Notes: generated by a model from the sequence alone, not told the origin. 64,000 nt of DNA from Elusimicrobia bacterium GWC2_61_19 (GCA_001799795.1 MGUD01000018.1:2647-66646); one strand, 5' to 3'; positions 298-33,100 are shown, counted from the first letter of the stretch. Translations and numbers: made by a program.

Positions 298-1155
298 ATG
301 AAAAGAACCATATTAGCGGCCGCCCTGCTGGCGGTATTCGCCGGCGGCCTTTACGCCGCCGAGAAAGAAGTAGCCGTGGTCAACGGGCGGAAAATAGCCC
401 GCGAAGACCTGACCAAGAAACTCTGGTGGCAGTACGGGGCCCAGGGCCTTTCCGAACTCATAGACGAGCGGCTGCTGCTGGCGGAGGCCGCGCGCCTCGG
501 CGTAAAAGCCGACCCGAAGGAGGCCCAGGAGCGCTACAACAGCCTGTCCGCCGGTTACCCCGACAAGGCCCAGTTCGAGGCCAACCTGAAGTCCGTGGGC
601 TGGACCCCCGCCGACCTGCGCGCCCTTATCGACCGCCAGCTGACCATCCGCGCCACGGTGATAGCCGCCAGGAAACTGGCCGTCACGGACGCCGACGCCA
701 GGGACTTCTTCGACAAGAACAAAGAGCGCCTGGCCACCCCCGAGTCGCTGAAACTCAGCCAGATCTTCGTGAACACCAAAGCAGAAGCGGACGACGCCTA
801 CGAACTGCTGACCTCCGTCGGAGCGGACTTCGCCAAGCTCTCCAGCCTAAAGTCCACCGACGCCAACCTCAAGAAGAACAACGGCAGCCTGGGCTATATC
901 TCCAAGGGCATGCTGCTGCCCGAGATAGAGAAGGAAATATTCTCCCTGAAAGCCGGGCAGTACAGCAAAGTCCTGCCCACCGGCAACGGCTTCAGCATTT
1001 TCAAGGTGGAAGAGCGCAAACCGGGCCAGGACGCCTCGTTCGACAAGGTGAAAGACGAGCTCAAGGTCGCCCTGCTCAACCAGGCCGTCACCAAAGCCCT
1101 GCCCGAGCTGGCCGCGGAACTGCGCCAGAAGGCCAAGATAGAAATTATAAAGTAA
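298..1155 (+). CDS. Exported parvulin-type peptidyl-prolyl cis-trans isomerase (SurA/PrsA-like)
   Basis: GGAGGG lies just upstream of the ATG. Signal peptide MKRTILAAALLAVFAGGLYAA. C-terminal rotamase pattern GSLGYISKGMLLPEIEKEIFSLKAGQYSKVLPTGNGFSIFKVEE. Confidence 0.8.
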   Translation: MKRTILAAALLAVFAGGLYAAEKEVAVVNGRKIAREDLTKKLWWQYGAQGLSELIDERLLLAEAARLGVKADPKEAQERYNSLSAGYPDKAQFEANLKSVGWTPADLRALIDRQLTIRATVIAARKLAVTDADARDFFDKNKERLATPESLKLSQIFVNTKAEADDAYELLTSVGADFAKLSSLKSTDANLKKNNGSLGYISKGMLLPEIEKEIFSLKAGQYSKVLPTGNGFSIFKVEERKPGQDASFDKVKDELKVALLNQAVTKALPELAAELRQKAKIEIIK

Positions 1156-1178
1156 CTTAAGCCGAAGCGAAAAAAGAG

Positions 1179-1214
1179 AAGGCGGGCCGGATATTCCGGC
1201 CCGCCTTTCTTTTT
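1179..1214. terminator. Bidirectional intrinsic terminator between convergent genes
   Basis: 12-bp stem aaggcgggccgg/ccggcccgcctt with loop atatt. It is flanked by an A-run upstream and tctttttt downstream. Confidence 0.7.
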
Positions 1215-1228
1215 ACCCGCTTGGCTTT

Positions 1229-1969
1229 TTACGCGGCTTCCTCGGTGGAAACTTCCTTCTTACCCTTAGTGAAGAACGAGTGAGCTATGAAGTATATCAC
1301 CATGGCCGCCAGAATGACCTGGCTGGCGTAGAAATACTTGGCCGCGGAGTAGGTGTACAGGTCGTCGAAGCGCCCGTACAACAGCGAGAACCGGGCCATG
1401 ACGGTATTACCGAAGGCCGCGCCGAAGTAGACCATCAGGAAGTAGATGCCCACATTGGAGACTTTTTTAAGGTGGCCTTTATGCTCCACCGAGAAGAAGA
1501 AGTAGAAGAGCACGCAGATAGTACCGCCCGCCACCAGCAACGACCCGAAAATATTGAACGGGGTCATGGAAGCCAGCATGGAGAACGGCTTTATGGTGCC
1601 GCCTATCTGGCTGATGAAGTCCGTGGAAAGGCCGGCCGGGATGGCCAGGCCGGAGCCGTAGCCCATCATGAACGTGAAGCCGTAGCGGGAGATCCAGGAG
1701 ATCTTGGGGATGAACTGGGTCAGCAGTGAAATACCCAGGATGGAGGGGATTATCACCAGCATCTCGCCGTTGGAGACGGGTTCCCAGATCTTCGGCAGCC
1801 ACACGTTCGTGACCGACACCTGGAACAGCCAGCCCATGCCGGCGCCCAGGTACAGGTGCTCGGCGATCTTAAAGAACGGGTTGTCCTTGTAAAGGAAGCT
1901 GAAGAGGAAGATAGTGAGTCCCGCCGACACCCAACCGCCGATAATAAGCCATGTTTCTGACATAATCAC
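1229..1969 (-). CDS. Polytopic inner-membrane protein, unknown function (membrane module gene 4)
   Basis: The listed ORF starts at GTG 1969; ATG at 1963, preceded by GAGGTG, is the likelier start. Several hydrophobic helices. It begins 18 nt after the upstream gene. No family recognised. Confidence 0.7.
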   Translation of the reverse strand: MIMSETWLIIGGWVSAGLTIFLFSFLYKDNPFFKIAEHLYLGAGMGWLFQVSVTNVWLPKIWEPVSNGEMLVIIPSILGISLLTQFIPKISWISRYGFTFMMGYGSGLAIPAGLSTDFISQIGGTIKPFSMLASMTPFNIFGSLLVAGGTICVLFYFFFSVEHKGHLKKVSNVGIYFLMVYFGAAFGNTVMARFSLLYGRFDDLYTYSAAKYFYASQVILAAMVIYFIAHSFFTKGKKEVSTEEAA

Positions 1970-1987
1970 CTCAAGAGAAAGTTGTTA

Positions 1988-2812
1988 TCAAAAATATTTA
2001 ATGAACAGCAGAATGATGTTGGAAGTCAGGATAAGCACCAGCACCAGCAGGTGCGCCAGGTTAAGCGCGTCGATCCCGGAAGTGCCTTTGCCCGGCTGCT
2101 TGATGAGCGACTCGTACTCCGCCGCGCCCTTCATGCCGCCTATAAGGCCTTTCAACTGATTGGTCTGCAGGTAGGGCCCGTAGCCCGGCTGGCTGATGGC
2201 TGTAACGCCGCCGGCCACCGGCACGCTGTACTTGTCGCCGACGTAAGCCACCCAGTAATCCAGCAGCGCGGTACCGGTAACGCTTACGATAAGGGCCATA
2301 TCCTTATAGTTCTTCACGCCCTTCATGACGGGCATATCTTTGATGGGGGCACCGTTGCGGTCCTTGGCGTAAATACCGTAGAGGTCCGAAGACATCTGCG
2401 TCATGACCGCCAGCACATTGGGCTGGTACGGGAAAATAACATAATCCTGCCCGTCCGTTTTATTGTATTCCTTGGGGACCTTGGCGAAGACCTCTTCTAT
2501 CAGGCCCGTGGAGCCGGCTATATAGGTAACCACGCCCACGCGCAGGTTCCGGCTGAAGGCGTGCCGCACCAGCGCCATGGCCATAGGATGCAGTTCAGGC
2601 CTGGTCGAGGGGTCGTAGTCGAGCGATAAAAGCACGAAAGACCCGACGGGCAGTTTCTCGATATTATCGTAGACCCGGCGGGTGGCGGGGGAGATGGTCT
2701 TATTGGGCAGGCCGATAGGCTTCATTATCGGGACGAACAGCGTGACCGCCAGCAGCAGGAAGATCCAGCGCCTGTCTATCTTGAAGAATTTCTGAAGTTG
2801 TTCCTTGAGCAT
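1988..2812 (-). CDS. Bitopic membrane protein with large soluble middle domain, unknown function (module gene 3)
   Basis: N-terminal TM (WIFLLLAVTLFVPIM) and C-terminal TM (LLVLVLILTSNIILLFI) flank a ~220-aa domain. The start lies 3 nt after the upstream stop. Confidence 0.7.
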   Translation of the reverse strand: MLKEQLQKFFKIDRRWIFLLLAVTLFVPIMKPIGLPNKTISPATRRVYDNIEKLPVGSFVLLSLDYDPSTRPELHPMAMALVRHAFSRNLRVGVVTYIAGSTGLIEEVFAKVPKEYNKTDGQDYVIFPYQPNVLAVMTQMSSDLYGIYAKDRNGAPIKDMPVMKGVKNYKDMALIVSVTGTALLDYWVAYVGDKYSVPVAGGVTAISQPGYGPYLQTNQLKGLIGGMKGAAEYESLIKQPGKGTSGIDALNLAHLLVLVLILTSNIILLFIKYF

Positions 2813-2815
2813 GGC

Positions 2816-3484
2816 TTAATCCTTCCCCATATACTGTTTTTCGATGCCGAAGATTATTTTAAGCGAGGTCACGATAGCGCCGATGGAGATGCCTATCATG
2901 ATACCGCGTTTGCCGGCCACCGCGGGTACCTGCATGATCCATTCTATGACCTGGTCCACCCCGGCGCCGGTCCAGCCCAGCACCGAACTCCAGATTATCT
3001 GGCCCAGCGGAACTTTGCCGAGTATCAGGATGAAAGCCGCCACGAACAACACGAAAGCCTGCAGTGATTTTATCCTGAACGACCTGTAAGCGGTGGAAAC
3101 GATGTAGAAGGCCAGCACCGCGAACATGGTGCCCGAGAGGGCATTGTAGATGAACTTGAACGACCAGCCCAGCGGGGTCAGGCCGGCGTCGGTCATCTGC
3201 TTACCGTGGCTCAGGTAGGCGGGCAGCACCATGGCCAGGAAGCCCACGAACACGAAGACGCTGTAGCCCCAGCCGTCGGCGTGCCTCTTGATCTTATTGT
3301 AGTGCGAGAAGAACAGGCTGATGAGCCCCAGCAGAAAAGCGAAAGCGACCACGATATTTTCCCACTGGCTCAGGGTCTCGATGTAATTAACCGAGACCTT
3401 GTTGGGGACATAATAAGACACCAGTGTAAGAACACCGGTCACCATCACGATGGCTAAAGGTATATGTTTTTTTATCAGTTTCAT
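2816..3484 (-). CDS. Polytopic inner-membrane protein, unknown function (module gene 2)
   Basis: Multi-TM ORF separated by 3 nt from the upstream gene. No family recognised. Confidence 0.7.
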   Translation of the reverse strand: MKLIKKHIPLAIVMVTGVLTLVSYYVPNKVSVNYIETLSQWENIVVAFAFLLGLISLFFSHYNKIKRHADGWGYSVFVFVGFLAMVLPAYLSHGKQMTDAGLTPLGWSFKFIYNALSGTMFAVLAFYIVSTAYRSFRIKSLQAFVLFVAAFILILGKVPLGQIIWSSVLGWTGAGVDQVIEWIMQVPAVAGKRGIMIGISIGAIVTSLKIIFGIEKQYMGKD

Positions 3485-3487
3485 AAA

Positions 3488-4732
3488 TTAATAGCCTTTG
3501 AACAGGTGGAGCAGGCCGGCCACGAAATTGGTCCAGCCGAACTTCGCCCCCAGGACCACCAGGATCATGCCGAAGAAAGCCGAGACCATCACTATAAGCT
3601 TGCCGAAGTCCTGCACCTTGAGGGCGCTGAGCAGCATGGGCTCCTTGGACAGGTAGGCCCCCGCGGCGTAGAGTTCCTCGCCGATAAGCGTATAGTCGCA
3701 GGCCGTGAAGAAGAAAGGCAACTGGTGCTCCACGTCGGTGCCGGCGATCTGGATGGCGCCCGAGGTGGCGCCGACTTCGGCCAGCAGCAGGGATTCGGCC
3801 ATGAAGTAACCCATATAGAAACAGGCGGCCGGTTTTTCGCGCGAGATCATACCGTCTACCGAGGCCGCGTAAGAGAACTGGTCGGCGCTGACGAACTGGT
3901 TGACGTCCTCGCGGTAGGAATCCGGGCGGCCGGCTTCCAGGTAGGACTGCTTGACTATCTCCTTGCAGACGGTCATGACTATGGGGTCGTAATGCGGCAC
4001 TTTTATCTGGGAATCGTACTGGGCGACCTTTTTAGAAACCTCGCCCAGGATGAAAGCGGAGGCGATGGTGGAAATGGAGCTCATGGAGCCGATACCGGGC
4101 ACATAGAAGATGGGCTTGCCCATCTCGGTGGCGCGGCCGATGGCCTCGTCTATGGCGTCCAGACCCGCTATGCGGCGGATGAACAGGCCTTTGCGCTTGG
4201 CGTGCGACACCGCCCAGAAAAAGATAACGATGAGCACGATGAGCAGGATGAGGTTGTTGAGGCGGTCGAGGCGGAACCAGTTGCCCACCGGGGTCACGGC
4301 CACGGGCAGCGACTCCGCTATTACTTTCTTGCCTTTTTCGGCCGCCACTTTGAACTGAAAAACAGAGGCGGGCAGGCTCTCGCCGAAAAGGTTATTGAGC
4401 TCGACTTTTACCGCGTGCTCGTCGGCGGAACCGTTCCAGGCCCAGAAAGGCAGGTCGATATCCTTGCCGGTCCTGGCGTCGAAGGCGAACCTGTCGGCCT
4501 CCAGCCAGCCGCCGGTCTGAAGAGAAGAAGCGTAAACCACGTAAACAGTATCGGGGGTATCGGCGGGGTTCACCGGCCATCTGAGGACGGCCGCGTTGCC
4601 GACGTCGTAGGGCATGTCCCCGGCGGTGAAGCCGTTCAGGACCGCCGCGGCGGGGGCCGGTTTAGCGGCAAAAACGCTGCCGGCGGCAAAGAGCATTAAA
4701 ACAATAAGGGGGATCACTTTGGTTTTAATCAT
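3488..4732 (-). CDS. Signal-peptide protein with exported beta-rich domain, TM segments and a conserved-looking GLDAIDEAIGRATEMGKPIFYVPG domain; unknown function (module gene 1)
   Basis: Signal peptide MIKTKVIPLIVLMLFAAGSVFA. A ~130-aa exported domain is followed by a TM helix (LILLIVLIVIFFWAV), a ~200-aa domain and C-terminal TM helices. Confidence 0.7.
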   Translation of the reverse strand: MIKTKVIPLIVLMLFAAGSVFAAKPAPAAAVLNGFTAGDMPYDVGNAAVLRWPVNPADTPDTVYVVYASSLQTGGWLEADRFAFDARTGKDIDLPFWAWNGSADEHAVKVELNNLFGESLPASVFQFKVAAEKGKKVIAESLPVAVTPVGNWFRLDRLNNLILLIVLIVIFFWAVSHAKRKGLFIRRIAGLDAIDEAIGRATEMGKPIFYVPGIGSMSSISTIASAFILGEVSKKVAQYDSQIKVPHYDPIVMTVCKEIVKQSYLEAGRPDSYREDVNQFVSADQFSYAASVDGMISREKPAACFYMGYFMAESLLLAEVGATSGAIQIAGTDVEHQLPFFFTACDYTLIGEELYAAGAYLSKEPMLLSALKVQDFGKLIVMVSAFFGMILVVLGAKFGWTNFVAGLLHLFKGY

Positions 4733-4743
4733 AACTGTCTAAT

Positions 4744-4772
4744 AATATACACTTTATGGATTTTCCAGGCAA
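4744..4772 (-). promoter_or_regulatory. Candidate sigma70-type promoter for the four-gene membrane module
   Basis: On the minus strand: TTGCCT (4772..4767), 17-nt spacer, TATATT (4749..4744). ATG at 4732 is 11 nt downstream with no SD. The gap is AT-rich in a GC-rich region. Confidence 0.4.
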
Positions 4773-4781
4773 GGTCAAATG

Positions 4782-6542
4782 TCAGTTCTCCAGCAAATAG
4801 CTGGACACCCCGGCCCGCGAAGGCCCTGAGCTCAGGAATCTCTTTATCGCCGCGACGTGTTTCTGCATACCGGCCTTGTTCATATTTTCAAAAACGGCCT
4901 CTCTTGCCGCGCGGCTGATGTTTTTGGGCCAGAGCAGGTAAAGGGTGGCGGGGGCGCTGCCTTCTCCCTCATAGCGAAAAACTTTCATCAGTCTGTAAGG
5001 CTCAAGGAGAGAATCCAGCTGTTTGGCCGTAACATGCCATTGCGAGTACAAGTCCCTGTCCGCAAGGACATCTCCCGTCATGTACACGGGGACGGCCTGT
5101 GCATAGTAACGCGCGAGGCTGGCGCGCAGCTGCGCGACCGGGTCTTTTTTGTCCGCGTAGGCGTTCAGGATAGCCAGCTGGATGGAGATCCTTTTACGGT
5201 TGGAGAAATACGGGAGATAGACCTTCAACGCCCCGCCGGAGATCAGGACGGGGCTGTCCGGGTAGGTAAAGTGCGCGACCGCTTCGCAAAACCCGATGGC
5301 CGGCTTGACCTGCTTACCCAGATAATTAGGCACGATAAGCCGGAAGAAATTATTGCCGGCCAGAAGACCGACGAAGAGAAACCCGGCCGCGGGTAAAAAG
5401 CGGGCCTTCAGCGCCCGGACGCGCGCCTGGAACAGCGCCGCCAGCAGCCCGCAGCAGAGCGCGACATTGGTGGACCAGTAAATAGTGTTGGCCGGCTGCC
5501 AGACGGAGTACAGCAGCAGGAACAACGCGAAAGGCAGGCCGAAGGCGGCCGCGAGCGGCGCGCTTTCGGGTGTAAGGAGGGGGCGCTTTTTATCGCCGGA
5601 AGACGCGCTGAAGGCGGCCATGGCCGACAGGAGGAGCGCCGCGGCGGCGAGTACGGCCGCCGCTGATCCGCCGGTAAAGTAGAAAAAAGACAGGAGCAGG
5701 TTCTTTACCGGCAACAGTATGTGGGCGGGGATATTCAGGTCGAACTGCCCCAGGGGATTGCTCTCGGGTGAAACTCCGTTCACAAGCCCCGAACCCCACT
5801 GCCACCAGCGCGCCAAGCCGCCCCTGACAAAAAAACCGTGTATACCGGCGTAAGGCAGGAAGAAAACCAGGAATATGCCGGACAAAATACCGGCCTGCCT
5901 GAGGACCTCCTTGCGGTGATATAACAGCGCGGCAGCCGCGGCGGCCCAGAGGATATTATTGGCGATATGGAAACCGGAGGCCAGGCCGGCGAAAACACAC
6001 AGCCAGGTGAAAGCGGCCAGGGAAAATTCCCGGAAATACCTGTAGAGCGCCGCGCAGAAAAGAACGGTGAACAGCGTCCCGGCCAGGTACGGCTCCGCCC
6101 CGGTGGAGCGGCTCCAATACACATTGCTGACGCCGGCCAGCAGCGTCCAGAACAGCGCCGGCCGCCTGGAAAGGAGCCCGTTAAGAATGGCGAAGAAGAA
6201 GGCCAGGCCAAGCGCGCCGGCGGCCGCGTTGAACCACTGGATGGCCTCATAGGTCAGGCCGCCGAAGCCCAGGGCCCGGATTAGCACGTAGAAAAAGCGC
6301 GTGGCGGGGTACCAGAGGAAATGGTTCCATTCGAATATGACGGAGAGTTCGTTGAGGCCGAGAGGCGCCCTGATGATGCCGGCGTACAGGACCGAATCAT
6401 AAAAATACGAGTGGTCGAAAGTTACGGAATAAAGGAGCAGGAAAGCTATAAAAACGAAGACCGGGTCGGAGACCGCCTGAGGAACGGAACCGGAAATTAT
6501 CTCTTTAAACCGGCCACCGCCGGGGTTGGACTCCATAAGCAC
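4782..6542 (-). CDS. GT-C-like (ArnT/PMT/DUF2723-like) polytopic membrane glycosyltransferase, putative
   Basis: More than 10 hydrophobic helices plus a ~170-aa soluble C-terminal domain. Loop motif DHSYFYDSVLYAG after TM1. The listed start is GTG; ATG at 6536 is an alternative. Assigned by architecture only. Confidence 0.5.
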   Translation of the reverse strand: MLMESNPGGGRFKEIISGSVPQAVSDPVFVFIAFLLLYSVTFDHSYFYDSVLYAGIIRAPLGLNELSVIFEWNHFLWYPATRFFYVLIRALGFGGLTYEAIQWFNAAAGALGLAFFFAILNGLLSRRPALFWTLLAGVSNVYWSRSTGAEPYLAGTLFTVLFCAALYRYFREFSLAAFTWLCVFAGLASGFHIANNILWAAAAAALLYHRKEVLRQAGILSGIFLVFFLPYAGIHGFFVRGGLARWWQWGSGLVNGVSPESNPLGQFDLNIPAHILLPVKNLLLSFFYFTGGSAAAVLAAAALLLSAMAAFSASSGDKKRPLLTPESAPLAAAFGLPFALFLLLYSVWQPANTIYWSTNVALCCGLLAALFQARVRALKARFLPAAGFLFVGLLAGNNFFRLIVPNYLGKQVKPAIGFCEAVAHFTYPDSPVLISGGALKVYLPYFSNRKRISIQLAILNAYADKKDPVAQLRASLARYYAQAVPVYMTGDVLADRDLYSQWHVTAKQLDSLLEPYRLMKVFRYEGEGSAPATLYLLWPKNISRAAREAVFENMNKAGMQKHVAAIKRFLSSGPSRAGVSSYLLEN

Positions 6543-6565
6543 CCTTTCACTTAGCGCCCTAAGTC

Positions 6566-8725
6566 TTATTTCGCACCTATGTACCGGACGATGACTTCCC
6601 GCATGATGTTGAAAGCAGGGGAGACCCCGGGAGGGAGTTTAGACACAAGTTCATAAACGGCCACGCGGTTGACGGGACGGCCGTTGTCCATCTCTTCGTG
6701 GGCGTACACTTCCACTACGTGCTTATCCCAGAAGGCATCGTAGATCCCGCGGGCCCGGGCGTCCCAGTAGAACATATTGTAGGCCTTGCCCAGCCTTATG
6801 CCTTCGGCTGGATTCAGCAGCAGATGCGTTATTCCCTCGGCTTTCAGGCGCGAGTAAAGTTCCTCGCCCGTTTTGGCGGCGGCGGCGTACTCCACTATCG
6901 GGGTTTTGTCGAAAACGGAACTTACCATGAAATCTTTCCTGAAGTACGAACCGCGGGCGTCCCCTATAATCAGCGTTTTGGCGCCGGGCGGCAGTTTATA
7001 ATTGATGAACTGAATGGCCCCATAATGGCTGTAAGGGTAGGTGGGTTCGGTGACGGCCAGGTAAGCATCCTTGTCCACAAGGCCGAACACCGGCCGCCAG
7101 CGGCCCTGTGAATACAATATGAGGCCGGCCCAGTACACCCCGAAAGCGCAGGAGAACAGCGTCAGGATAGCGAGCGTTTTGCGCAGGAGCCTGTGCTGGC
7201 GGGCGTCGAGCGCCGCGGCTATCAGCAGGGCCGCCGCCGGGTAGACGGGCATCAGGAAGCGCACCATGGTGGAGGCGAAGGACCACAGCAGCCAGCCGCA
7301 GAGGAAATAGAGCCAGAACGGCGGCGTGCCCGCCGGCTGCAACAGGAACAGCAGCGGCAGCATGACCAGGAACAGAGGCGTGAAATAATTAGAATTGGGC
7401 AGGGCGCCCATCGTGACGTTCCACGGGTGCAGCAACCAGGCCTTCGGTTCCAGGGCGCTCATCTGCCGCGTTTCCACCATAAAGCCGCGCAGTTTATCCG
7501 GGTCCGCCCCGGACAGCCCGAAGACGGACGTCAGGAAGGGAAAGAAGGGATTGCCGCGGTACAGCCAATTCTTGGCCAGCCAGGGCAGCACCGGCAGGGC
7601 GGCCACGCCCGCGAACACCAGGGCAGCGCGCAGGGCGTTAGCGCGGTCGGCCCGCGCGCGCCAGAGCAGGACCAGGCCGGTGCCCACGGCCGGGAACAGG
7701 CCGGTGGTCTTTACCGCCATGCCGCAGCCGGAAAGAAAAGCCGCCAGCAGCAAAAAACGGTATTCTCCGGGCTCGTGGCGCAGGGCGGCGGCGAGCGCGC
7801 AGACCGAGAACAGGGTAAGCAGGTCTTCCGTGCCGGAGGACCAGGAGGCCATCATCGCCTGCGCTACGGTGTAGAAGATCAGCCCGGCCCAGAGGCCGGC
7901 GCGCAGCGTGAAATGCCGGCGGCCGATGCCGACTACGGCTACCAGGCTCAGGACCCCGGCCGCGTAGTTCAGCAGTTTGGGCACCATCTCGTCCTTAAGC
8001 AGCAGGCCGGCGGAATAGAGCATGCCGTGCAGCAGGAAGAGGTTGGAATACAGGTTATACGGCATGTCCGAGATACCATGCTTTATCGTATAGAAACTGG
8101 GCACGGCCAGGTGATAGACCAGAGAATCGTAAAAGATCTCGGGGCTGAGCGCGCCGATGAGGTTGAGCAGCAGCGCCGCGGCCAGCAGGGCCATGGCGAG
8201 CAGGTCGGGGAACTCCGGCCTGAAAGCGGGGGCGGGGGCTTCCGGGGGGATGGGATAATGTTTTCTGGAAAGCGCTCCCAGCGCCAGCGAAACCCCCAGG
8301 ACCAGGTATACCGGCCCCCTGTAAAGGAAACCGCAGGCGGCCAGAACAAGTATCAGGTGCCCTACGGCACCGAACCCCAGCGCTACCGAGAAAGCCGACT
8401 CTTCGCAGGCCGTCATGCGCCCGGGGTTAAGCGCGGCGGCCAGCAGGAACCTGCCCAGGCCGGCGCAGGCCAGGACAAAGAACAGGCCGGACAGCAGCGC
8501 GGAAAAATGTCCGGGCAGGGCCTTGAACAGGGCGGCGCTGAAATACTGCCCCGGCGAAAGGACGACAAAAAGCGAATTGAGATCGGGGGGATAATGCGAG
8601 AGGTAGGTCTTAAGGACCCAGCCGCCCCAGAGCAGGAAAGCGCCCCAGGCCAGCCAGGCCGGGAACCGGGGCGGCTCTGGCGCGGCAGGCGGAACGGCGG
8701 CGGCGTTTTTACGTTTTTTTGCCAT
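6566..8725 (-). CDS. GT-C-like polytopic membrane glycosyltransferase, putative (paralog of 4782..6542)
   Basis: 719 aa with many TM helices and a soluble C-terminal domain. It shares the motif SPEIFYDSLVYHL with its neighbour. Assigned by architecture only. Confidence 0.5.
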   Translation of the reverse strand: MAKKRKNAAAVPPAAPEPPRFPAWLAWGAFLLWGGWVLKTYLSHYPPDLNSLFVVLSPGQYFSAALFKALPGHFSALLSGLFFVLACAGLGRFLLAAALNPGRMTACEESAFSVALGFGAVGHLILVLAACGFLYRGPVYLVLGVSLALGALSRKHYPIPPEAPAPAFRPEFPDLLAMALLAAALLLNLIGALSPEIFYDSLVYHLAVPSFYTIKHGISDMPYNLYSNLFLLHGMLYSAGLLLKDEMVPKLLNYAAGVLSLVAVVGIGRRHFTLRAGLWAGLIFYTVAQAMMASWSSGTEDLLTLFSVCALAAALRHEPGEYRFLLLAAFLSGCGMAVKTTGLFPAVGTGLVLLWRARADRANALRAALVFAGVAALPVLPWLAKNWLYRGNPFFPFLTSVFGLSGADPDKLRGFMVETRQMSALEPKAWLLHPWNVTMGALPNSNYFTPLFLVMLPLLFLLQPAGTPPFWLYFLCGWLLWSFASTMVRFLMPVYPAAALLIAAALDARQHRLLRKTLAILTLFSCAFGVYWAGLILYSQGRWRPVFGLVDKDAYLAVTEPTYPYSHYGAIQFINYKLPPGAKTLIIGDARGSYFRKDFMVSSVFDKTPIVEYAAAAKTGEELYSRLKAEGITHLLLNPAEGIRLGKAYNMFYWDARARGIYDAFWDKHVVEVYAHEEMDNGRPVNRVAVYELVSKLPPGVSPAFNIMREVIVRYIGAK

Positions 8726-8768
8726 TAAACAAAAGCGGCCGCGCGGCGGGTTACCGGCGCAGGCCGCT
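8726..8768 (-). terminator. Intrinsic-terminator-like GC hairpin plus U-tract abutting the ATG of the 719-aa gene
   Basis: On the minus strand, stem agcggcc..ggccgct (8768..8734, with inner GC pairs) is followed by TTTTGTTTA and then ATG at 8725. Confidence 0.45.
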
Positions 8769-8779
8769 CGTAGGTCAGG

Positions 8780-9904
8780 TTACTTCTCCAGCACTTCTAT
8801 ATTGGCGCGGGGGACCACTATCACCTCGCCGCCGTCGAGCGTAACTTCCAGCACGCGGGCGTGGGATTCGCTGCCTATCACGGTCAGTTCCGGCGGCAGG
8901 GACTTCACGGTGCCTATCACGCCGAAGTGGGGCTCGCGGATTATGCGGATAGGGTCGCCGGGTTCTATCCAGCCGCGGCCCTGGTCCTTCTTGCACTCGG
9001 TCACGTTCTTGGGGAAGCCGGGCACGATGATCTCCGGGCGCATGACGCCGGCGCGGATCTGCGTAGCGCCGGAAACGGAGGCGTTCTCCCCGTTGCGCGA
9101 CGAGATCAGTTTAAAAGTATACTCGGCCATCGGGATCGCGCCGAAGCCTTCGGTCACGATCACGGTAACGCCCAGCTGCTCGTTGCCGGTCACCGCCACG
9201 CCGATGTCGTAGCCCAGGAGTTCGCGCAGGTCGCGGTCGTGGATGCCGCCCACCACTATGGCGTTAACGCCCATCTCGACGGCGCGCTTGATGGTGGCGA
9301 GGCTCGCGTGCCTGCCGCCTATGACGATCTTGCCCTTGTGTATTTCCTTGATGGCCTCCGGCTGAAGGTCCTCGTCGGGGCTGGCCACGGCCACGGCTAT
9401 TTCGCCGTTGGTCTCGCCGCCCACGCCGAAGATGCCCTGGATGAAGGTGCCTTCGGCCTCTATGGCGACGCCGAAATTGGGGGTAACCTCCACCACTTTG
9501 CCTTTTACGTAGGCCTTAATGGGCAGCACTTTCGGGGGCTCGCGCAGCAGCACCTGGCCGGTTATAAAGGAGACGCTTTCCACGGTGCCGCTTACCGGCG
9601 ACTCCACGGAGGTCTTGAACCACTTCAGGAAGGGTTTGTTCTCGGCGAGGATCTCGCCCTGCTTCACGGCCTCGCCCTCTTTCTTGAGCATATAGCCCTG
9701 TATTTCTTCCGGGCCCACGGAAAGGCGGTTCGCGACGTTCACGGAGAAGACCTTGCCGGGCAGTTCGGTCTGGGCCACGATGTCCAGCGAATCTACCTGC
9801 TGCCCCAGGGCGGCCAGCACCTTGCCGGGGATGGGCAGCAGCCTCTTCTTCACCAGCCGTGTGCAGGGCATTACTTTAAGTCCGGGTGTATACGCGTGTG
9901 CCAT
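8780..9904 (-). CDS. Barrel-sandwich-hybrid (lipoyl/RnfC-N-like) domain protein, unknown function
   Basis: AAGGAGA SD. The pattern EGEAVKQGEILAEN...VESPVSGTVESV is present, but there is no MKM biotin motif. Gly-rich segment KGKIVIGGRHASLATIKRAVEMGVNAIVVGG. Confidence 0.6.
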   Translation of the reverse strand: MAHAYTPGLKVMPCTRLVKKRLLPIPGKVLAALGQQVDSLDIVAQTELPGKVFSVNVANRLSVGPEEIQGYMLKKEGEAVKQGEILAENKPFLKWFKTSVESPVSGTVESVSFITGQVLLREPPKVLPIKAYVKGKVVEVTPNFGVAIEAEGTFIQGIFGVGGETNGEIAVAVASPDEDLQPEAIKEIHKGKIVIGGRHASLATIKRAVEMGVNAIVVGGIHDRDLRELLGYDIGVAVTGNEQLGVTVIVTEGFGAIPMAEYTFKLISSRNGENASVSGATQIRAGVMRPEIIVPGFPKNVTECKKDQGRGWIEPGDPIRIIREPHFGVIGTVKSLPPELTVIGSESHARVLEVTLDGGEVIVVPRANIEVLEK

Positions 9905-9926
9905 AAATTATCTCCTTGTGGTCGTA

Positions 9927-11720
9927 CTAGAGAGGATACATCGACATCGCTTTGTACCACTTGTTCAGGTCGTCGCGGCGCTTGGACGGGTCCTTCGCCA
10001 GGTTGAAGGGGCGGCCGCGCCCGTCCAGCACCAGGCCCACCACGCCGCCCTCGATATCGGCTTCCACGCGGTTGCCGGAACCGGCGCCCATGTCGAAGCC
10101 CTTCACCGGCTTGGCCACGAGTTTGGCTTTGGGAGCGGCGAACGGCACATGGATGATGTCGCCGAAGCGCAGTTCTCCGGCCTGCCGGCTGCCGTCGGAG
10201 CCGGTAACTTCCCACTCCATTATAAGCTGGCCTTCCTTGGCCAGGCCCTTGGGGGCCAGGCAGGTGCCCATCCGCACAAGGCAGTCGTGGTAGAACACGT
10301 CCAGCGCGGCCTTCTCGCTGATCTGCGCCAGCACGCCCAGGTGCGGCATCATGAAGATGGAGTCCACGGCCATGCGGGTGACGCCTTCGGGCTGGTAGGC
10401 GTCTATCATCATCAGCATGGACTGGGTGCGGCGGGGGGAATGCGCCAGAATGCCGCCCGAACCTATCACGTAGTCGAGCCGCATCACGTTGATGAGGCTG
10501 GCCCCGGAAGAGGTCTGGTCGAAAGCGTCCGAGATGGAGCGCTCCTGCTGCACGCCCTTGAGCCCGACGGCCAGCGCCTTGTGCTGGTCGAAAGCCAGGC
10601 GCAGCGCCTCGCGCGAGACGGCATGCTCGATCTGCAGGTCCTCCACCGTCTGGGGGATGGTGGTGGGGCGGATCATTTTGTTCTTCAGGCGGTTTCTGAG
10701 GTCCTGCTCTTCGATGTCGAAAGGCAGCCAGCGCAGGATGTTCGCCAGGCCCGCCTCCGCCATGACATTGGAGATGGAGTAGCTCATACCCAGGTTGGCG
10801 CTGACGGTGCGGTTGAAGACTTCGGAGAACACGGAGAACACGTCGGTGGTGGCGCCGCCGATGTCCACGGCCAGGACGTTGAATTTATTGGCCTTGGCGA
10901 ATTTTTCCGTCATGGTGCCTACCGCGGCCGGCGTGGGCATGATGGGCGCGCCCACCATCTTCATCAGGCGCGGGTAGCCGGGGGCCTGCTGCATCACGTG
11001 CTCGAGGAAAATGTCGTGGATCTTGTGGCGGGCCGGCATCAGGTTCTCGCGCTCCAGGCTGGGGCGCAGGTTCTCGGTTATGATCAGGGCGGTGGTGTCG
11101 CCGAGGATCGCCTTGATCTGGTCGTGCGCCTTGTTGTTGCCGGCGTAGATCACCGGCAGCTTGTAGGAGGCGCCGAGGCGCGGCTTGGGGTCGGCCGCCT
11201 TCAGGAACTGGGCCAGTTCCACCACGTGCGTGATGGTGCCGCCGTCGGTGCCGCCGGAAAGCAGCATCATGTCCGGGCGCAGCTGGCGGATGCGCTCGAT
11301 CTTCTCGTGGTCCGCGCGGCCGTCGTTAGAGGCCAGCACGTCCATCACGATGGCGCCCGCGCCGAGCGCGCAGCGCTGGGCGGATTCGCCGGTCATGGCC
11401 TTCACCGCGCCGGCCACCATCATCTGCAGGCCGCCGCCGGCCGAGGAGGTGGAGACGTAAATATCGGCGCCCACATTGCCGTTGTTCGGGGTTATTATCC
11501 GTTCGCCGTCGAGGATCTTGCGGCCGGAGAGCTCCTCCACCTCGGTGATGGAGTTGAGCACGCCCTTGGTGACGTCTTCAAAAGGGGCTTCCACAGTGGT
11601 GGGGGCTTCGCCGCGGAAAGTCTGGCGGTAGGTGTCGCCTTTCTTTTCGATAAGGATGGCTTTCGTGGTGGTACTGCCGCAGTCGGTGGCTATTATGACT
11701 TCAAGGTCTTTGTTGGACAT
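9927..11720 (-). CDS. GlmL/MutL-family ASKHA-fold ATPase (glutamate-mutase-L-like), orphan
   Basis: AAGGAGAG SD. Phosphate-binding motifs IATDCGSTTTKAIL and VLAVDIGGATTDVF. Family assignment is from memory of GlmL/MutL-like proteins. Confidence 0.65.
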   Translation of the reverse strand: MSNKDLEVIIATDCGSTTTKAILIEKKGDTYRQTFRGEAPTTVEAPFEDVTKGVLNSITEVEELSGRKILDGERIITPNNGNVGADIYVSTSSAGGGLQMMVAGAVKAMTGESAQRCALGAGAIVMDVLASNDGRADHEKIERIRQLRPDMMLLSGGTDGGTITHVVELAQFLKAADPKPRLGASYKLPVIYAGNNKAHDQIKAILGDTTALIITENLRPSLERENLMPARHKIHDIFLEHVMQQAPGYPRLMKMVGAPIMPTPAAVGTMTEKFAKANKFNVLAVDIGGATTDVFSVFSEVFNRTVSANLGMSYSISNVMAEAGLANILRWLPFDIEEQDLRNRLKNKMIRPTTIPQTVEDLQIEHAVSREALRLAFDQHKALAVGLKGVQQERSISDAFDQTSSGASLINVMRLDYVIGSGGILAHSPRRTQSMLMMIDAYQPEGVTRMAVDSIFMMPHLGVLAQISEKAALDVFYHDCLVRMGTCLAPKGLAKEGQLIMEWEVTGSDGSRQAGELRFGDIIHVPFAAPKAKLVAKPVKGFDMGAGSGNRVEADIEGGVVGLVLDGRGRPFNLAKDPSKRRDDLNKWYKAMSMYPL

Positions 11721-11741
11721 GTGGCTCTCCTTGGAATACCG

Positions 11742-12056
11742 TCAGATCTTCTTTTCAGCGTCCGCTCCCAGCCGCTCCGTCAGATAGGCGACGGCCTTGG
11801 GATTCTCCAGCAGCTTGGCATACCTGCTGACTTCTTCTTTCTGAAAAACCATGCTGAGCATCGGGCCCAGGAAAACCACGCCCTGCGCGCCCAGGTTATG
11901 CAGGGGCCTGGTGCTCTCCAGCGCCAGGGCGGCCATGTCGCCCATCTTTCTGGCCCGGACCTTGTCGGCGAGGGCGTCCAGAAGTTTTTTTTCCTCTTCC
12001 GTCGCCTCCGGCGGTTCGGGGAGTTTAAAAGCGTTGTCCCAGATTCCCATGCGCAT
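11742..12056 (-). CDS. Small acidic/helical hypothetical protein, first gene of the ASKHA trio
   Basis: 104-aa ORF, 21 nt upstream of the ASKHA gene. The in-frame ATG at 12050 may be the true (leaderless) start. No family recognised. Confidence 0.5.
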   Translation of the reverse strand: MRMGIWDNAFKLPEPPEATEEEKKLLDALADKVRARKMGDMAALALESTRPLHNLGAQGVVFLGPMLSMVFQKEEVSRYAKLLENPKAVAYLTERLGADAEKKI

Positions 12057-29477: not shown

Positions 29478-29551
29478 GCGGGCGTCGTACAATGGTAGTA
29501 CGAGTGCTTCCCAAGCATTAAACGTGGGTTCGATTCCCATCGCCCGCTCCA
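29478..29551 (+). tRNA. tRNA-Gly (anticodon CCC), CCA encoded
   Basis: Cloverleaf by eye: acceptor GCGGGCG/CGCCCGC, D stem GUAC/GUAC, anticodon stem AGUGC/GCAUU with loop UUCCCAA, T arm GUGGG-UUCGAUU-CCCAU, and a 3' UCCA. Confidence 0.9.
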
Positions 29552-30126: not shown

Positions 30127-33100
30127 ATGAATTTCAGAAAGGTCCTTCCTATATCGCTGTTCGCCCTGGCCTTGTTAGCGCCGGGAGCTGGCGCGCTTGC
30201 CACCGGCCGCCACGGCCATACCACCACCCTGCTGCCTGACGGCAATATCCTGGTAGCCGGCGGCACCACCGGCGCCGCCAACGTCTCCCTCAACAGCGTC
30301 GAGATCTATTTCACTTCCGCGGCCGCTTTCGGCGCGGCCCCCAACATGCCGGCCTCCCTGTCCTCCCACACCGCCACGCTCATGGGCAACGGTATGGTCC
30401 TGGTAGCGGGCGGTTTCACCAACGGCGTCCCGGTAAACTCCGCCGCGATCTATAACCCGCTGACAAAAACCTGGACGCCTGTAACCGCCACCCTGGCCTC
30501 GACGAGGGGGGGACATACCGCCACCCTGCTTAATAAAGGCGCCAGTTCCGGAAAAGTCCTTATCTGCGGCGGGCAGACCGCGAGCGAAACTTCCATAACC
30601 AACACCTGCGAGGTTTTCACCCCGAACGTCACCCCGGCGCTCGGTAATTTCGCCTCGGTCCAGGCCATGAGCAGCGAACGCATGGGCCACTCCGCCAGCG
30701 CCATAGCCGGCGGCCGCGTATTCGTATCGGGCGGGCGCCGTTGGGACGCCGTCGCCTCCACCTTCACCTACCTGTCCACCAACGAGATCTACGACCCCGA
30801 GAACTACCAGTGGCAGACCGTAACGGCCCTTACCACCGGACGCACCGACCATTCCGCCGTGGTACTCAACAACGGCACCATCCTCATCTCCGGAGGGTAC
30901 AACGGCATCGACAAGCTGGACACAGCGGAAGAGGGCTGGTATAAAACCCCGCTGGGCAGCGCATCCAACCAGAACGCAGGCAGCAAAGGTTTCCTGGACA
31001 GCGCCGAGATCTTCGACTCTTACGGCGGCAGGGTGCCGGTCTCCGGCTCCGACTACCAGGTGATGCCTTACAGGAACTCGAAACACGCCGCCGCCCTCTC
31101 CCCGGACGGCAAGCAGCACATGTACGGCGGCTACGGCAATATCCCGCCCAAATTTTTCTTCGCCATCCCGACCATGGAAACCGGCTCGCAACTGGACACC
31201 ACAAAGACCAATATAACCACCGCCAGGGTGAACACCAGCAGCATCCTCCGGTACCTGCTGGACATCAATCTCTCCAGGCCCGTGGACGGCCGCCTCGTCG
31301 ACGCGGATATCTTTATCTCGCGGGCGGTGGACGGGCCTTCCCTCAGCGTCTCTAACGCGTCCATTTATATCGACGGGCCGAGCACCGCCACCGTGGACGG
31401 CTTTACGGTCGGCCTGATGGTCCCCGGCGTGGCACCGGGAGAGTTCAGGGACATAGTGCAGCCGCAGAACCCGACCGGCACCGTCAGCTTCGCCCCGGTC
31501 GGGGTCGCCTCCATCGACACCTACGCGACCTCCGGCTCGCTGGTCTTCTCGATCACCCCGATCCCGGTCGGGAATCCGCCCGTCCCGCTGACGGCGGGCT
31601 CCGTGCTGACCATTCCCGTCACCATCGAAGTCTCCCCGACCTACGTCGGAGGCATCATCAGCGGCACAATGACGATAACCGGCGCGTCGATATCCGACAA
31701 CCTTGGCTACTGGCTGGCCTCCCTGACCGGCGGCACGGGGGAATTCACCAGCGGCGCGGTAACCTACGACGCCTTCACGGGGATGGGCGTGGCCTCCGGC
31801 AACGTGGCCTTTTCAGCCCTCACCGGTACTATCATAAATTCGACAACTACCGCGATAGTGTCCAGCCCGCTGGCCACTACCGCCAGCGACCCCGTGACCT
31901 CCGTATCACTGCGGGCCTATTACACCTCCACCAGGATAGACCTTTCAGACCTGCAGTATGCCATAAGCATATCCACATTCGTCGTCCGGGAAATGATATT
32001 CTCCGACAACCTGGAGTACAGCCCGGATAAGGCCAAATGGCAGTTCGGACAGGTACTCTACCCGGTCTTCAACCTGTCGGCCCTGGTCACCCCCGGCGCG
32101 GACACGGCCATCATAGGCGGCAGGAACTGCGAACTGATCCCGTCCGCACACTGCAAGCGCGCGGCCCTGGCCCCGGTTTTCACCGCCTCCAATATCTCCG
32201 GGGCGTTCATCTCCCAGAACCATTCAACTTGGTCCAAAAGCGGAAAACTCGCCAACAAGCGCGCCTTTCATACCAGCACCCTGCTGCCGGACGACGGGAT
32301 ACTTACCTGCGGCGGCTCCGACGGCACAGCCACGCTGGCCACCTGCGAAATGTTCTACCCGGCGGAACAAGAGTGGAGGCCGGCCGGGACCATGAATTAC
32401 CCGCGCTCCAGGCACACCGCCACGCTGCTGCCCAACGGCCGCGTGCTGGCGGCCGGCGGTGCCATAAACTCCTCTACCCATGCCGTAACTTACGCGGAGA
32501 TCTACTACCCGGACACCGACAAATGGCTGCCGACGAACTCAATGGCTTTCGCCCGCACGAACCATACCGCCACGCTGCTGCCGGACGGCAACGTGCTGAT
32601 GGCCGGCGGTGATACGATAAACGGCTACTCGGCGACCTCCGAGATCTACCTTACCACCAGTTCGGTCTGGCTGACCGCCGGCGCCCTGGCGAACGGCGGC
32701 AGGGCCCAGCACACGGCCACGCTGCTTAAGAGCGGCAACGTGCTGATAGCCGGCGGCATAAACGGCAACGGCGCCATAAAGACCACGGAAGTGTATAATT
32801 TCGCGACGCGCACCTGGACCGACACCGGCGACGACCTGCAGGTAAAGCGCTACGCGCACGCCGCGAACCTGCTGATGGACGGCCGCGTTATGGTCACCGG
32901 CGGCACCGACGGCTACGGCCCGATGGACACCGCCGAGGTTTACGACGGGTTAAGCTGGAAACTCACCACCCAGCTGGGGGGCAACAACATGCTCGCCCGC
33001 CGCACAGGCCACCGTTCCACCCTGCTGCCCAACGGCAAGGTCCTGATCACCGGCGGTGAGGCCCCGGGCATCGCCTACTCTCTGGTAGAAGGCTACGACG

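Follow-up and report, generated by a model that had tools for sequence, protein, structure and literature searches.

A conserved inner-membrane gene cluster of Elusimicrobia that encodes a DUF6754 protein and probably belongs to an undescribed cell machine

The DNA analysed here is a 64,000-nt stretch of Elusimicrobia bacterium GWC2_61_19 (GCA_001799795.1 MGUD01000018.1:2647-66646), hereafter the window, and all coordinates are positions in it. Four minus-strand ORFs of 414, 222, 274 and 246 aa (A, B, C and D, Table 1) were found as the preliminary description had claimed. The gaps between them had been given as 3, 3 and 18 nt; the A-B and B-C values stand, whereas the C-D gap becomes 24 nt if D starts at ATG 1963. 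This start is more probable than GTG 1969, because it is preceded by GAGGTG and because public gene callers give a product of 244 aa. The callers report the identical four genes, and homologues of each, down to 28-45% identity, occur in other phyla within the same cluster. Long plus-strand ORFs are also present in the region (e.g. 3464..4699); since they lie opposite the conserved A-D genes, they are taken to be shadow ORFs of G+C-rich DNA. That A-D are themselves partly spurious ORFs of such DNA, or unrelated genes adjacent by chance, is hardly credible: nothing favours it except that long ORFs are generally common in this sequence of 55-60% G+C, and it conflicts with the agreement of the gene callers and with homologues of all four in several phyla, clustered in 66 of 66 loci. 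On the strength of this clustering across phyla it was rejected.

Table 1. Features of the A-D locus and its linked genes (window coordinates)
Feature	Position	Strand	Remarks
Bidirectional intrinsic terminator	1178..1208	.	Sequence inspection; T-runs on both strands
Gene D	1229..1969	-	246 aa from GTG 1969, or 244 aa from ATG 1963
Gene C	1988..2812	-	274 aa
Gene B	2816..3484	-	222 aa
Gene A	3488..4732	-	414 aa
DUF6754 region of A, aa 150-397	3542..4285	-	TM helix, cytoplasmic domain, TM helix; Pfam
Sigma-70-type promoter of A-D operon	4744..4772	-	Consensus scan
Two large polytopic proteins (586, 719 aa) between 374 and A	4782..8725	-	Associated, not core
Linked gene 374	8780..9904	-	374 aa; cytoplasmic, beta-rich
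Linked gene 597	9927..11720	-	597 aa; GlmL/MutL-family ASKHA (actin/Hsp70-fold) ATPase; PF13941
Linked gene S	11742..12056	-	104 aa; directly upstream of ATPase gene

The four genes had been credited with a promoter of their own. In the 49-nt gap upstream of A, the scan located a -35 element TTGCCT (4772..4767) separated by a 17-nt spacer from a -10 element TATATT (4749..4744). The motif TTGCCT-N17-TATATT is present in 53 of 63 Elusimicrobia loci, as against 0.5% of random 70-nt windows, and this phylogenetic footprint supports the assignment. The motif is retained in Elusimicrobia regardless of the upstream gene, and in 47 of the 53 loci that carry it it ends 9-13 nt ahead of the start codon. 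Because the -10 element ends 11 nt ahead of the ATG of A and no Shine-Dalgarno sequence is present, we expect the A-D mRNA to have no leader or almost none, and the conservation of the promoter is suggestive of leaderless transcription in Elusimicrobia. The terminator on the 3' side of D is a strong hairpin with a G+C-rich stem of 13-14 bp and 10 G-C pairs. The A-D operon ends here, as does the PPIase gene (298..1155) that converges on it. We envisage A-D of Elusimicrobia as a separate transcription unit, delimited by the conserved sigma-70-type promoter and the hairpin terminator, in which A has a near-leaderless start and B, C and D are translated in a coupled manner.

Hydropathy, the AlphaFold model and Pfam bear out the earlier view of A as a protein with a signal peptide, an exported beta-rich domain, TM helices and a conserved domain. 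The signal peptide (aa 1-23) is followed by an exported beta-sandwich (aa ~24-154; hydropathy, AlphaFold model), which is FN3-like according to a Foldseek search with the model. TM helices are predicted at aa 155-181 and 368-398, the short tail facing outwards, and between them lies a conserved domain of 190 aa containing the GLDAIDEAIGRATEMGKPIFYVPG stretch. The juxtamembrane helix RRIAGLDAIDEAIGRATEMG is very conserved. A Rossmann-like alpha/beta fold is predicted for the cytoplasmic domain, whose AlphaFold model is of moderate confidence (pLDDT 38-84 in 10-residue blocks of aa 190-370) and gave no fold match in Foldseek. A is a full-length member of DUF6754 (PF20539; E 1.2e-111, 372.4 bits against a cut-off of 27, profile 3-251/257), and relatives of A from other phyla also pass the cut-off. 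The DUF6754 region is the conserved core of the family (42-56% identity between phyla for the protein or domain). The part N-terminal to it ranges in the relatives from almost nothing to about 1000 aa, and the periplasmic part is exchangeable among them, consisting of FN3 repeats, a PQQ/BamB-like propeller or a C-terminal extension, or being absent. PF20539 is a catalogue entry only, without function, structure or literature, and the partners B, C and D lie outside Pfam coverage; no mention of DUF6754 was found in the literature searched.

No Pfam or NCBIfam family was matched by B, C or D, and no PDB sequence relative was found for any of the four proteins. By hydropathy, B has six hydrophobic segments, corresponding to six predicted TM helices with cytoplasmic N- and C-termini, and D has five segments above threshold and probably 6-7 TM helices, in agreement with the proposal that the second and fourth ORFs are polytopic. 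The third, described as bitopic with a large soluble domain, does have a TM helix at either end of a soluble domain of ~215 aa. Both tails of C are K/R-rich, and the domain is therefore predicted to be periplasmic; from its alternating pattern of hydrophobic strands and amphipathic helices it appears to be alpha/beta rather than coiled-coil. Polysaccharide co-polymerases (Wzz/Wzc) and GldG-type proteins likewise have a periplasmic domain flanked by two TM helices, but C shares only this topology with them, not a sequence match. In some Latescibacterota C is tandemly duplicated. Conserved motifs are TMFSxLAFYIxSxAYRxFR and KRGIxxG...GIExxYxG in B, and FSFLYKDNPFFKxAEH, FFSxEHKG and FGASFGxTVMARxSLLxGR in D. 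A-D together are predicted to contribute about 16-17 TM helices.

The conservation of the four-gene order, on which the preliminary description had staked its proposal, extends far beyond the window. B, C and D adjoin A in all 66 loci with adequate flanks (40 of 40 in Elusimicrobiota, 10 of 10 in other phyla, 16 of 16 in metagenomes) and are colinear in 62 of them, with median intergenic gaps of 1, 3 and 16.5 nt (~75 loci). The hosts are Elusimicrobiota, Latescibacterota, Gemmatimonadota, Planctomycetota, Eisenbacteria, TA06, Xenobia and metagenomes, that is, at least seven bacterial phyla. Conservation is concentrated on the cytoplasmic side, the periplasmic side being more variable: the scores are 0.88 for the juxtamembrane helix of A, 0.75 for the domain of A and 0.36 for its FN3 domain, and 0.52-0.75 for the inward loops of B (the best three 0.66-0.75) as against 0.40-0.45 for outward loops. 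The spacing and the cross-phylum conservation fit the hetero-oligomeric membrane complex that had been suggested; what has to be amended is its extent, as A-D are only part of a larger set. A defence island seems unlikely, given the stable synteny in every Elusimicrobia locus examined and the very high degree of sequence conservation. The cluster is present in every Elusimicrobia locus examined, which together with its extreme conservation points to a housekeeping role.

The larger set includes three genes, S, 597 and 374, which in the window are found 4-7.3 kb upstream of A-D. The 597 protein belongs to PF13941 (E 5e-127; 424.8 bits, cut-off 27). As read from the sequence, its phosphate-1, phosphate-2 and adenosine motifs are intact. 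It carries a C-terminal extension of ~120 aa and is 65-68% identical between phyla, with a mean column identity of 78% across phyla. The 374 protein consists of an N-terminal barrel-sandwich hybrid domain (RnfC_N/NqrA_N-like), a central alpha/beta domain and a C-terminal KOW-like barrel, with the invariant stretches TEGFG and SGATQIRAG. S is a conserved small protein for which no family match was found. Outside Elusimicrobiota, the order S-597-374-A-B-C-D, with 374 directly upstream of A, is found in Latescibacterota and Gemmatimonadaceae; 374 overlaps A by 4 nt in three of these loci. Most Elusimicrobia have S-597-374 and A-D with GT-C-like genes inserted, and the Elusimicrobium minutum clade has A-B-C-D-x-x-S-597-374. 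Every 374 homologue with an inspected contig lies beside a DUF6754 gene, and in one metagenome contig (L134) a MutL-family domain and a 374-type barrel-sandwich domain are joined in one chain of 916 aa. Among full-flank loci, 597/374 were within 6-10 kb of A-D in 3 of 10 from other phyla and 3 of 16 from metagenomes; in the remaining genomes A-D may work without 597/374, or these genes may sit elsewhere.

The two proteins encoded between 374 and A gave weak matches to GT-C-type glycosyltransferases (PMT_2, LIC_10190 family, DUF8201). Many Elusimicrobia loci carry the 719-type gene, only three the 586-type; neither was found at this position in other phyla. A Wza-like Poly_export/SLBB gene is directly upstream of A in five loci. 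Most neighbours of A-D are unrelated housekeeping genes.

It had been noted that no ABC, MFS, RND or Sec signature is visible in the four proteins, and searches of Pfam, NCBIfam and PDB sequences agreed; nor did these searches, with Foldseek added, link the proteins to any transporter or respiratory complex that has been characterised. An ABC transporter was rejected, as neither ABC_tran nor a known ABC permease family was matched by A-D, 374, 597 or S. MFS, RND and Sec-YidC-Tat families had no match among the window proteins at E<=0.1 (Pfam, NCBIfam), and a wider survey of B and D, with 16-17 diverse members each, brought none even at E<=10; ABC2_membrane_3 was touched by only 2 of 17 B members (E 4.9). 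A-D could still be a self-contained solute or ion transporter in which the pathway would run through B and D, with A and C in accessory or regulatory roles; the ATPase would then not be needed, and the linkage with S-597-374 would be regulatory or reflect shared physiology. B and D are indeed polytopic, with 6-7 TM helices and a size typical of permease subunits, most non-Elusimicrobia loci lack 597/374 within 6-10 kb, and the A-D promoter of Elusimicrobia is separate from the S-597-374 genes. We nevertheless consider such a transporter unlikely, as the survey at E<=10 brought up no transporter family in these members of B and D beyond the two touches just mentioned, no internal repeat and no similarity between B and D was found, the invariant charged residues of B and D are in loops and not in predicted TM segments (alignments inspected), and conservation peaks in a 190-aa cytoplasmic domain rather than in the membrane core.

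The ATPase is of the same ASKHA family as the GlmL/MutL accessory proteins of B12-dependent glutamate mutase and the GlmL-related ornithine-degradation protein (PF13941, NF040745, NF040744). By their NCBIfam names, the characterised GlmL-family members assist B12-dependent mutases as accessory proteins and do not drive membrane machinery. It was rejected as a GlmL or Or-4 equivalog (231 bits against a cut-off of 475 and 211 against 600; NCBIfam), and is only 27-30% identical to annotated GlmL proteins. It differs from GlmL in the extra C-terminal region and in its neighbours, which are 374, S and A-D; no B12-binding, mutase or aminomutase gene was seen in the neighbourhoods of 597 examined. 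We know of no precedent for a GlmL-family protein acting at the membrane. ASKHA-fold proteins do dock on inner-membrane partners, as in MreB-MreCD, PilM-PilNO, GspL-GspM and mitochondrial Hsp70-TIM23, and by analogy 597 with A-D may follow the same logic of an actin/Hsp70-fold protein at the cytoplasmic or matrix face combined with small membrane proteins whose domains lie on the opposite side, but no family-level similarity to these systems was found in A-D or 374.

If 597 polymerised or formed a scaffold on A-D, the whole could be a membrane-anchored cytoskeletal or morphogenetic system like MreB-MreC-MreD or FtsA that positions envelope synthesis. The actin/Hsp70 fold family signature of 597, its identity across phyla, which we judge comparable to that of cytoskeletal or many-partner proteins, and the combination of a bitopic protein having a periplasmic domain with small polytopic partners, as MreC and MreD, are in line with this. 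None of the closest characterised relatives of 597, however, is a filament former, these being hydantoinases and accessory proteins of the GlmL type, and MreC, MreD, FtsA, PilM, PilN and PilO families were not matched in A-D, which makes a cytoskeletal role very unlikely. MreB-like_C was touched by 597 below threshold only (E 0.03).

An RnfC_N domain was detected in nine of nine members of the 374 family (best E 1.6e-6), and the L134 fusion exceeds the cut-off for NQRA_N (31.4 bits against 25); the 374 protein of the window itself scores below cut-off (19 bits). One peripheral protein, two polytopic proteins of ~220-245 aa and one bitopic protein of ~275 aa recall NqrA/D/C/E, and suggested an energy-converting, ion-translocating complex distantly like Rnf/Na+-NQR or the Na+-pumping decarboxylases, with 374 as an NqrA/RnfC-like peripheral subunit and A-D as the membrane arm. 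The likeness is confined to the N-terminal barrel-sandwich domain and, loosely, to subunit sizes; it does not extend to membrane-subunit homology, cofactor motifs or the whole-chain fold. No Rnf-Nqr, NQR2_RnfD_RnfE or FMN_bind match was obtained with A-D, on which ground Rnf/Na+-NQR membership was rejected, and none to Complex1_51K, SLBB or Fer4 with 374. The invariant columns of B and D contain no cysteine, and no Fe-S, flavin or NAD(H) motif was seen. The flavinylation motif has an upstream Asp, which the SGAT of 374 lacks, and 374 has no signal peptide. Foldseek gave a probability of 0.07 for 374 against RnfC (8ahx_C). To our knowledge, no Rnf or Nqr complex contains an ASKHA ATPase, which also counts against this assignment, and we regard it as highly improbable.

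As A-D are kept together in at least seven phyla, often beside an unusually conserved ASKHA ATPase, they are a real inner-membrane protein set and probably a hitherto undescribed cell machine. We put forward, as a tentative possibility, an ATPase-coupled machine of the cell envelope that includes 597, 374 and S, with A-D as its membrane part. In such a machine A-D would be subunits of one uncharacterised inner-membrane complex. To the cytoplasmic face of this complex A would contribute the juxtamembrane helix and the Rossmann-like DUF6754 domain, and B and D their inward loops; the periplasmic side would consist of the alpha/beta domain of C and the N-domain of A, be it FN3, propeller or absent. 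The cytoplasmic part would comprise the 597 ATPase, the 374 barrel-sandwich/KOW protein and S. The ATPase-adaptor pair may dock from the cytoplasm, at the conserved face presented by A, B and D, and ATP-dependent changes would be relayed through the membrane to the periplasmic domains. The machine would thereby assemble or export some component of the cell envelope, possibly a glycoconjugate. We infer the physical assembly of A-D and the coupling to ATP, and the role in the envelope or in export is suggested by weak hints, namely the GT-C-like genes in the Elusimicrobia cluster and the Wza-like gene in five loci. The most far-reaching form of the proposal, in which A-D with S, 597 and 374 would constitute an unrecognised machine spanning the inner membrane, driven by an ASKHA protein and not by an ABC, AAA+ or other P-loop ATPase, and serving housekeeping envelope assembly or export in Elusimicrobiota, several FCB-group candidate phyla, Gemmatimonadota and Planctomycetota, is possible but rather doubtful.

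The carriers of A-D belong mostly to phyla in which cultured members are few or absent, and the biology of their envelopes is largely uncharted. With these results DUF6754 gains a topology model, a set of candidate interactors and three defined partner families; B, C and D so far lack any family entry. Motors of the actin/Hsp70-fold type are, as far as we know, not known to drive bacterial envelope systems. If A-D and S-597-374 are indeed one machine, it would represent a new class of bacterial membrane apparatus.

Four consecutive minus-strand genes for membrane proteins, A to D, are separated by 3, 3 and 18 nt (the last counted from GTG 1969 of D), and the cluster noticed in the preliminary description is genuine, with clear limits. 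Scanning one genome for each GTDB species gave 80 loci; 80 further loci came from metagenomes, scanned with an Eisenbacteria-type A as seed. Wherever the flanks were adequate, B, C and D all adjoined A: in 40/40 loci of Elusimicrobiota, in 10/10 GTDB loci of other phyla (Latescibacterota, Planctomycetales, Gemmatimonadaceae, Eisenbacteria, TA06 and Xenobia) and in 16/16 metagenome loci. The order elsewhere, which had been named as a point to be checked, was colinear A-B-C-D throughout the first two sets and in 12 of the 16 metagenome loci; the non-colinear loci are permutations, e.g. C-D-A-B. The median A-B, B-C and C-D gaps are 1, 3 and 16.5 nt (about 75 loci). That the four genes adjoin by chance has a practically negligible probability. 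The features of the region are collected in the table; no source names exist for B, D, S, 597 or 719.

Features of the A-D region and two others in the window (window positions)
Feature	Position	Strand	Description
S	12056..11742	minus	104 aa
597	11720..9927	minus	GlmL/MutL-family ASKHA ATPase (PF13941, E 5e-127)
374	9904..8780	minus	barrel-sandwich/KOW-like protein
719-aa and 586-aa polytopic proteins	4782-8725	minus	weak GT-C-type hits (PMT_2, LIC_10190 family, DUF8201)
A	4732..3488	minus	414-aa ORF
B	3484..2816	minus	222-aa ORF
C	2812..1988	minus	274-aa ORF
D	1969..1229	minus	246-aa ORF (GTG 1969)
Hairpin	1178-1208		13-14 bp, G+C-rich, T-runs on both strands; 3' of D, also ends convergent PPIase gene
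tRNA-Gly(CCC) gene	29478-29551
Very long ORF	30127-35784	plus	1885 aa

The start of D is ambiguous (1960-1990), its length being 246 aa in the ORF list, 244 aa according to public gene callers and 233 aa in one NCBI record. Since GAGGTG precedes ATG 1963 and the gene callers give 244 aa, this codon is more probably the start than GTG 1969. AAAGG ahead of the start of B and GGAAGGA ahead of that of C fit coupled translation. The start codons at 4732, 3484, 2812 and 1969/1963 share one reading frame, with stop codons alone between; as the commonest A-B gap in other loci is 1 nt, this frame is not conserved, and it is probably a coincidence.

A promoter belonging to the cluster itself had also been proposed, and the promoter-like motif TTGCCT-17-TATATT (region 4730-4772) was indeed found within the 49 nt upstream of A. 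In Elusimicrobia CTTGCCTGAAAAATCCATAAAGTGTATATTATTACAAGTT-ATG reappears there with little variation, irrespective of the upstream gene. The relaxed pattern TTGNNN-N16-18-TA[TC]A[TA]T was present upstream of A in 53 of 63 loci, against a background of 0.5% of random 70-nt windows, and in 47 of the 53 its end lies 9-13 nt from the start codon. Because of this short distance from the ATG and because no Shine-Dalgarno sequence precedes A, the A mRNA is predicted to have little or no leader. The recurrence upstream of A in L001-L064, in dozens of Elusimicrobia species, suggests that such a transcript is conserved.

The signal peptide with which A starts looks cleavable, and behind it lies a periplasmic beta-sandwich (hydropathy, alignments and an AlphaFold model, pLDDT 71) that resembles FN3 domains, the only match of the model in Foldseek (E about 1e-4). 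These are followed by a TM helix, the near-invariant helix RRIAGLDAIDEAIGRATEMG, a Rossmann-like alpha/beta domain, placed in the cytoplasm by its K/R-rich flanks, and a second TM helix. From the first TM helix through the second the protein corresponds to Pfam DUF6754 (E 1.2e-111), and A is thus a member of this family. The host organism is one of the Elusimicrobiota, and the closest match of A, with 90% identity, is a protein of Elusimicrobia bacterium GWA2_61_42. DUF6754 comprises 2138 clusters at 50% identity (E<=1e-3). Its entry (PF20539) contains no functional information, and a search for relevant literature on the family found none. The domain is nearly always C-terminal. What precedes it ranges from next to nothing to about 1000 aa and can be made up of FN3 repeats, of a PQQ/BamB-like propeller or of sequence that is not recognised; in one relative the additional domain instead comes behind the last TM helix. 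The extracytoplasmic part is modular (L078 4084-6762; P0508; P0503, P0426), and its variants include the PQQ/BamB-like propeller (in Xenobia), the FN3 repeats, a beta-rich extension that follows the last TM helix and proteins with next to none (300-319 aa). Since these N-terminal and extracytoplasmic parts vary, conservation is centred on the cytoplasmic face, the most conserved side of A-D as a whole, with the periplasmic parts variable.

B has six TM helices (hydropathy and alignments); in D five hydrophobic segments exceed the hydropathy threshold and the number of helices is probably six to seven. C consists of a ~215-aa alpha/beta domain flanked by one TM helix at either end, and this domain is predicted to be periplasmic because both tails are basic. 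In some Latescibacterota a second, tandem copy of C lies between C and D (L065; L166 5031-5843, E 9e-99 with the C profile in hmmsearch). In L166 a DUF445 protein gene lies ahead of 374, near the contig end. B, C and D had no Pfam or NCBIfam match, even when 16-18 diverse members were scanned at E<=10, and the profiles built for A, B, C, D, 374 and 597 found no significant sequence match in the PDB. Paralogy of A and C, both built as TM-alpha/beta-TM, was rejected (hhalign probability 0.2%), and no two of A, B, C, D and 374 proved to be paralogous. DYDPS in C was considered as a HAD or MIDAS motif and rejected, its first Asp not being conserved. Two of the four proteins are polytopic, and A-D could be imagined as a stand-alone transporter; internal repeats in B or D and B-D similarity, looked for as transporter hallmarks, were not found. 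Membership in the ABC, MFS, RND, Sec, Mre or Pil families was tested with negative results, in agreement with the earlier remark that ABC, MFS, RND and Sec signatures are absent. We consider the transporter unlikely.

The preliminary description took the four proteins for a stoichiometric membrane complex. The idea is reasonable, though still a hypothesis, and incomplete, as a second conserved unit, S-597-374 (8780-12056, minus strand), is also linked to A-D, in three arrangements. The order S-597-374-A-B-C-D is found in Latescibacterota, Gemmatimonadaceae and one Elusimicrobiaceae lineage, with 374 overlapping A by 4 nt in three of these loci; in most Elusimicrobia one or two GT-C-like genes interrupt this order; and the Elusimicrobium minutum clade has A-B-C-D-x-x-S-597-374. 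Many Elusimicrobia loci contain the 719 type of inserted gene, only three contain the 586 type, and neither occupies this position in other phyla. The trio was found inside the available flank in at least 22 of 40 Elusimicrobiota loci, a lower bound since the insertions shift it further than 6 kb away, and in 3/10 loci of other phyla and 3/16 metagenome loci. All 374 homologues whose contig was looked up adjoin a DUF6754 gene. The 54-nt gap between 374 and 719 (8726-8779) contains a short G+C-rich palindrome, GCCGCGCGGC, then TTTTGTTT; this could act as a weak terminator or attenuator that separates the cytoplasmic genes from the GT-C-like ones.

Other recurrent neighbours, over 95 loci, were lineage-specific housekeeping genes only. 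Directly upstream of A and on the same strand, a Wza-like Poly_export/SLBB gene was seen in five metagenome loci (L087, L088, L093, L123, L129) and a PurF-like gene in L097, L104, L106, L109, L112 and L116; both probably reflect lineage-specific synteny. In a plasmid collection tblastn found no DUF6754, and with 597 as query true GlmL genes only.

At the Pfam level 597 is a member of GlmL/MutL. Its nucleotide-binding motifs, read by eye, are intact, and it has a ~120-aa C-terminal extension. Identity is 65-68% between phyla (mean column identity 78%), but only 27-30% to annotated GlmL; 597 falls under both NCBIfam equivalog cut-offs, is an equivalog of neither GlmL nor Or-4 and lacks mutase neighbours. 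The DxHxxG B12-binding motif, sought by eye because of the GlmL link, is absent from A, C and 374. No relevant literature was found on PF13941 or on GlmL as an ASKHA protein.

The model of 374 (pLDDT 83, pTM 0.76) comprises a barrel-sandwich hybrid (RnfC_N in 9/9 members), a central alpha/beta domain and a KOW-like barrel; Foldseek gave domain-level matches only, with no whole-chain analogue in the PDB. The barrel-sandwich hairpin may hold a biotinyl- or lipoyl-lysine, K94, W95 and K97 being conserved, but these residues sit in a longer, low-confidence loop, outside the MKM or DKA context canonical for such a site. In the ApbE flavinylation motif an Asp stands six residues before the Thr; in 374 this position is an invariant Ala and there is no signal peptide, so that SGAT is, on inspection of the sequence, unlikely to be such a site. 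The barrel-sandwich is the one domain that 374 has in common with RnfC/NqrA. All other defining features of Rnf/Nqr were looked for and were absent, and an Rnf/Nqr-like energy converter is very improbable.

In L134 (83-2833) a single 916-aa ORF joins a MutL/GlmL-family ATPase domain to a 374-type barrel-sandwich domain (NQRA_N, E 2e-7). This divergent paralogue of 597 and 374 (37% and 30% identity) lies some 7 kb upstream of a gene for a DUF6754 protein, with a GT4 gene nearby, and by the gene-fusion argument it suggests that 597 and 374 work together.

A to D are thus a conserved, predicted co-transcribed set of four membrane proteins with a highly conserved cytoplasmic face, genetically linked, repeatedly, to the ASKHA ATPase 597, its fusion partner 374 and S. 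Our tentative reading, to which we give somewhat less than an even chance, is that A-D would form the membrane portion of a machine coupled to an ATPase. The docking sites for the 597-374 pair would be the DUF6754 domain together with the inward loops of B and D, and conformational work would be relayed to two periplasmic domains, that of C and the exchangeable one of A. ASKHA-fold proteins dock on small bitopic or polytopic membrane partners in MreB-MreCD, PilM-PilNO and Hsp70-TIM23, which are the nearest functional analogies, and analogies only. An MreBCD-like morphogenetic scaffold is distinctly unlikely. For the ATPase-coupled machine, the GT-C-like genes in the Elusimicrobia cluster, the Wza-like gene and the GT4 gene weakly suggest a role in envelope assembly or export. 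We rate the A-D system as falling under no known kind, B, C and D having been compared by sequence only. It represents a phylum-spanning, strongly conserved and unstudied module, for which we infer a function and which is accompanied by an unusual ATPase.
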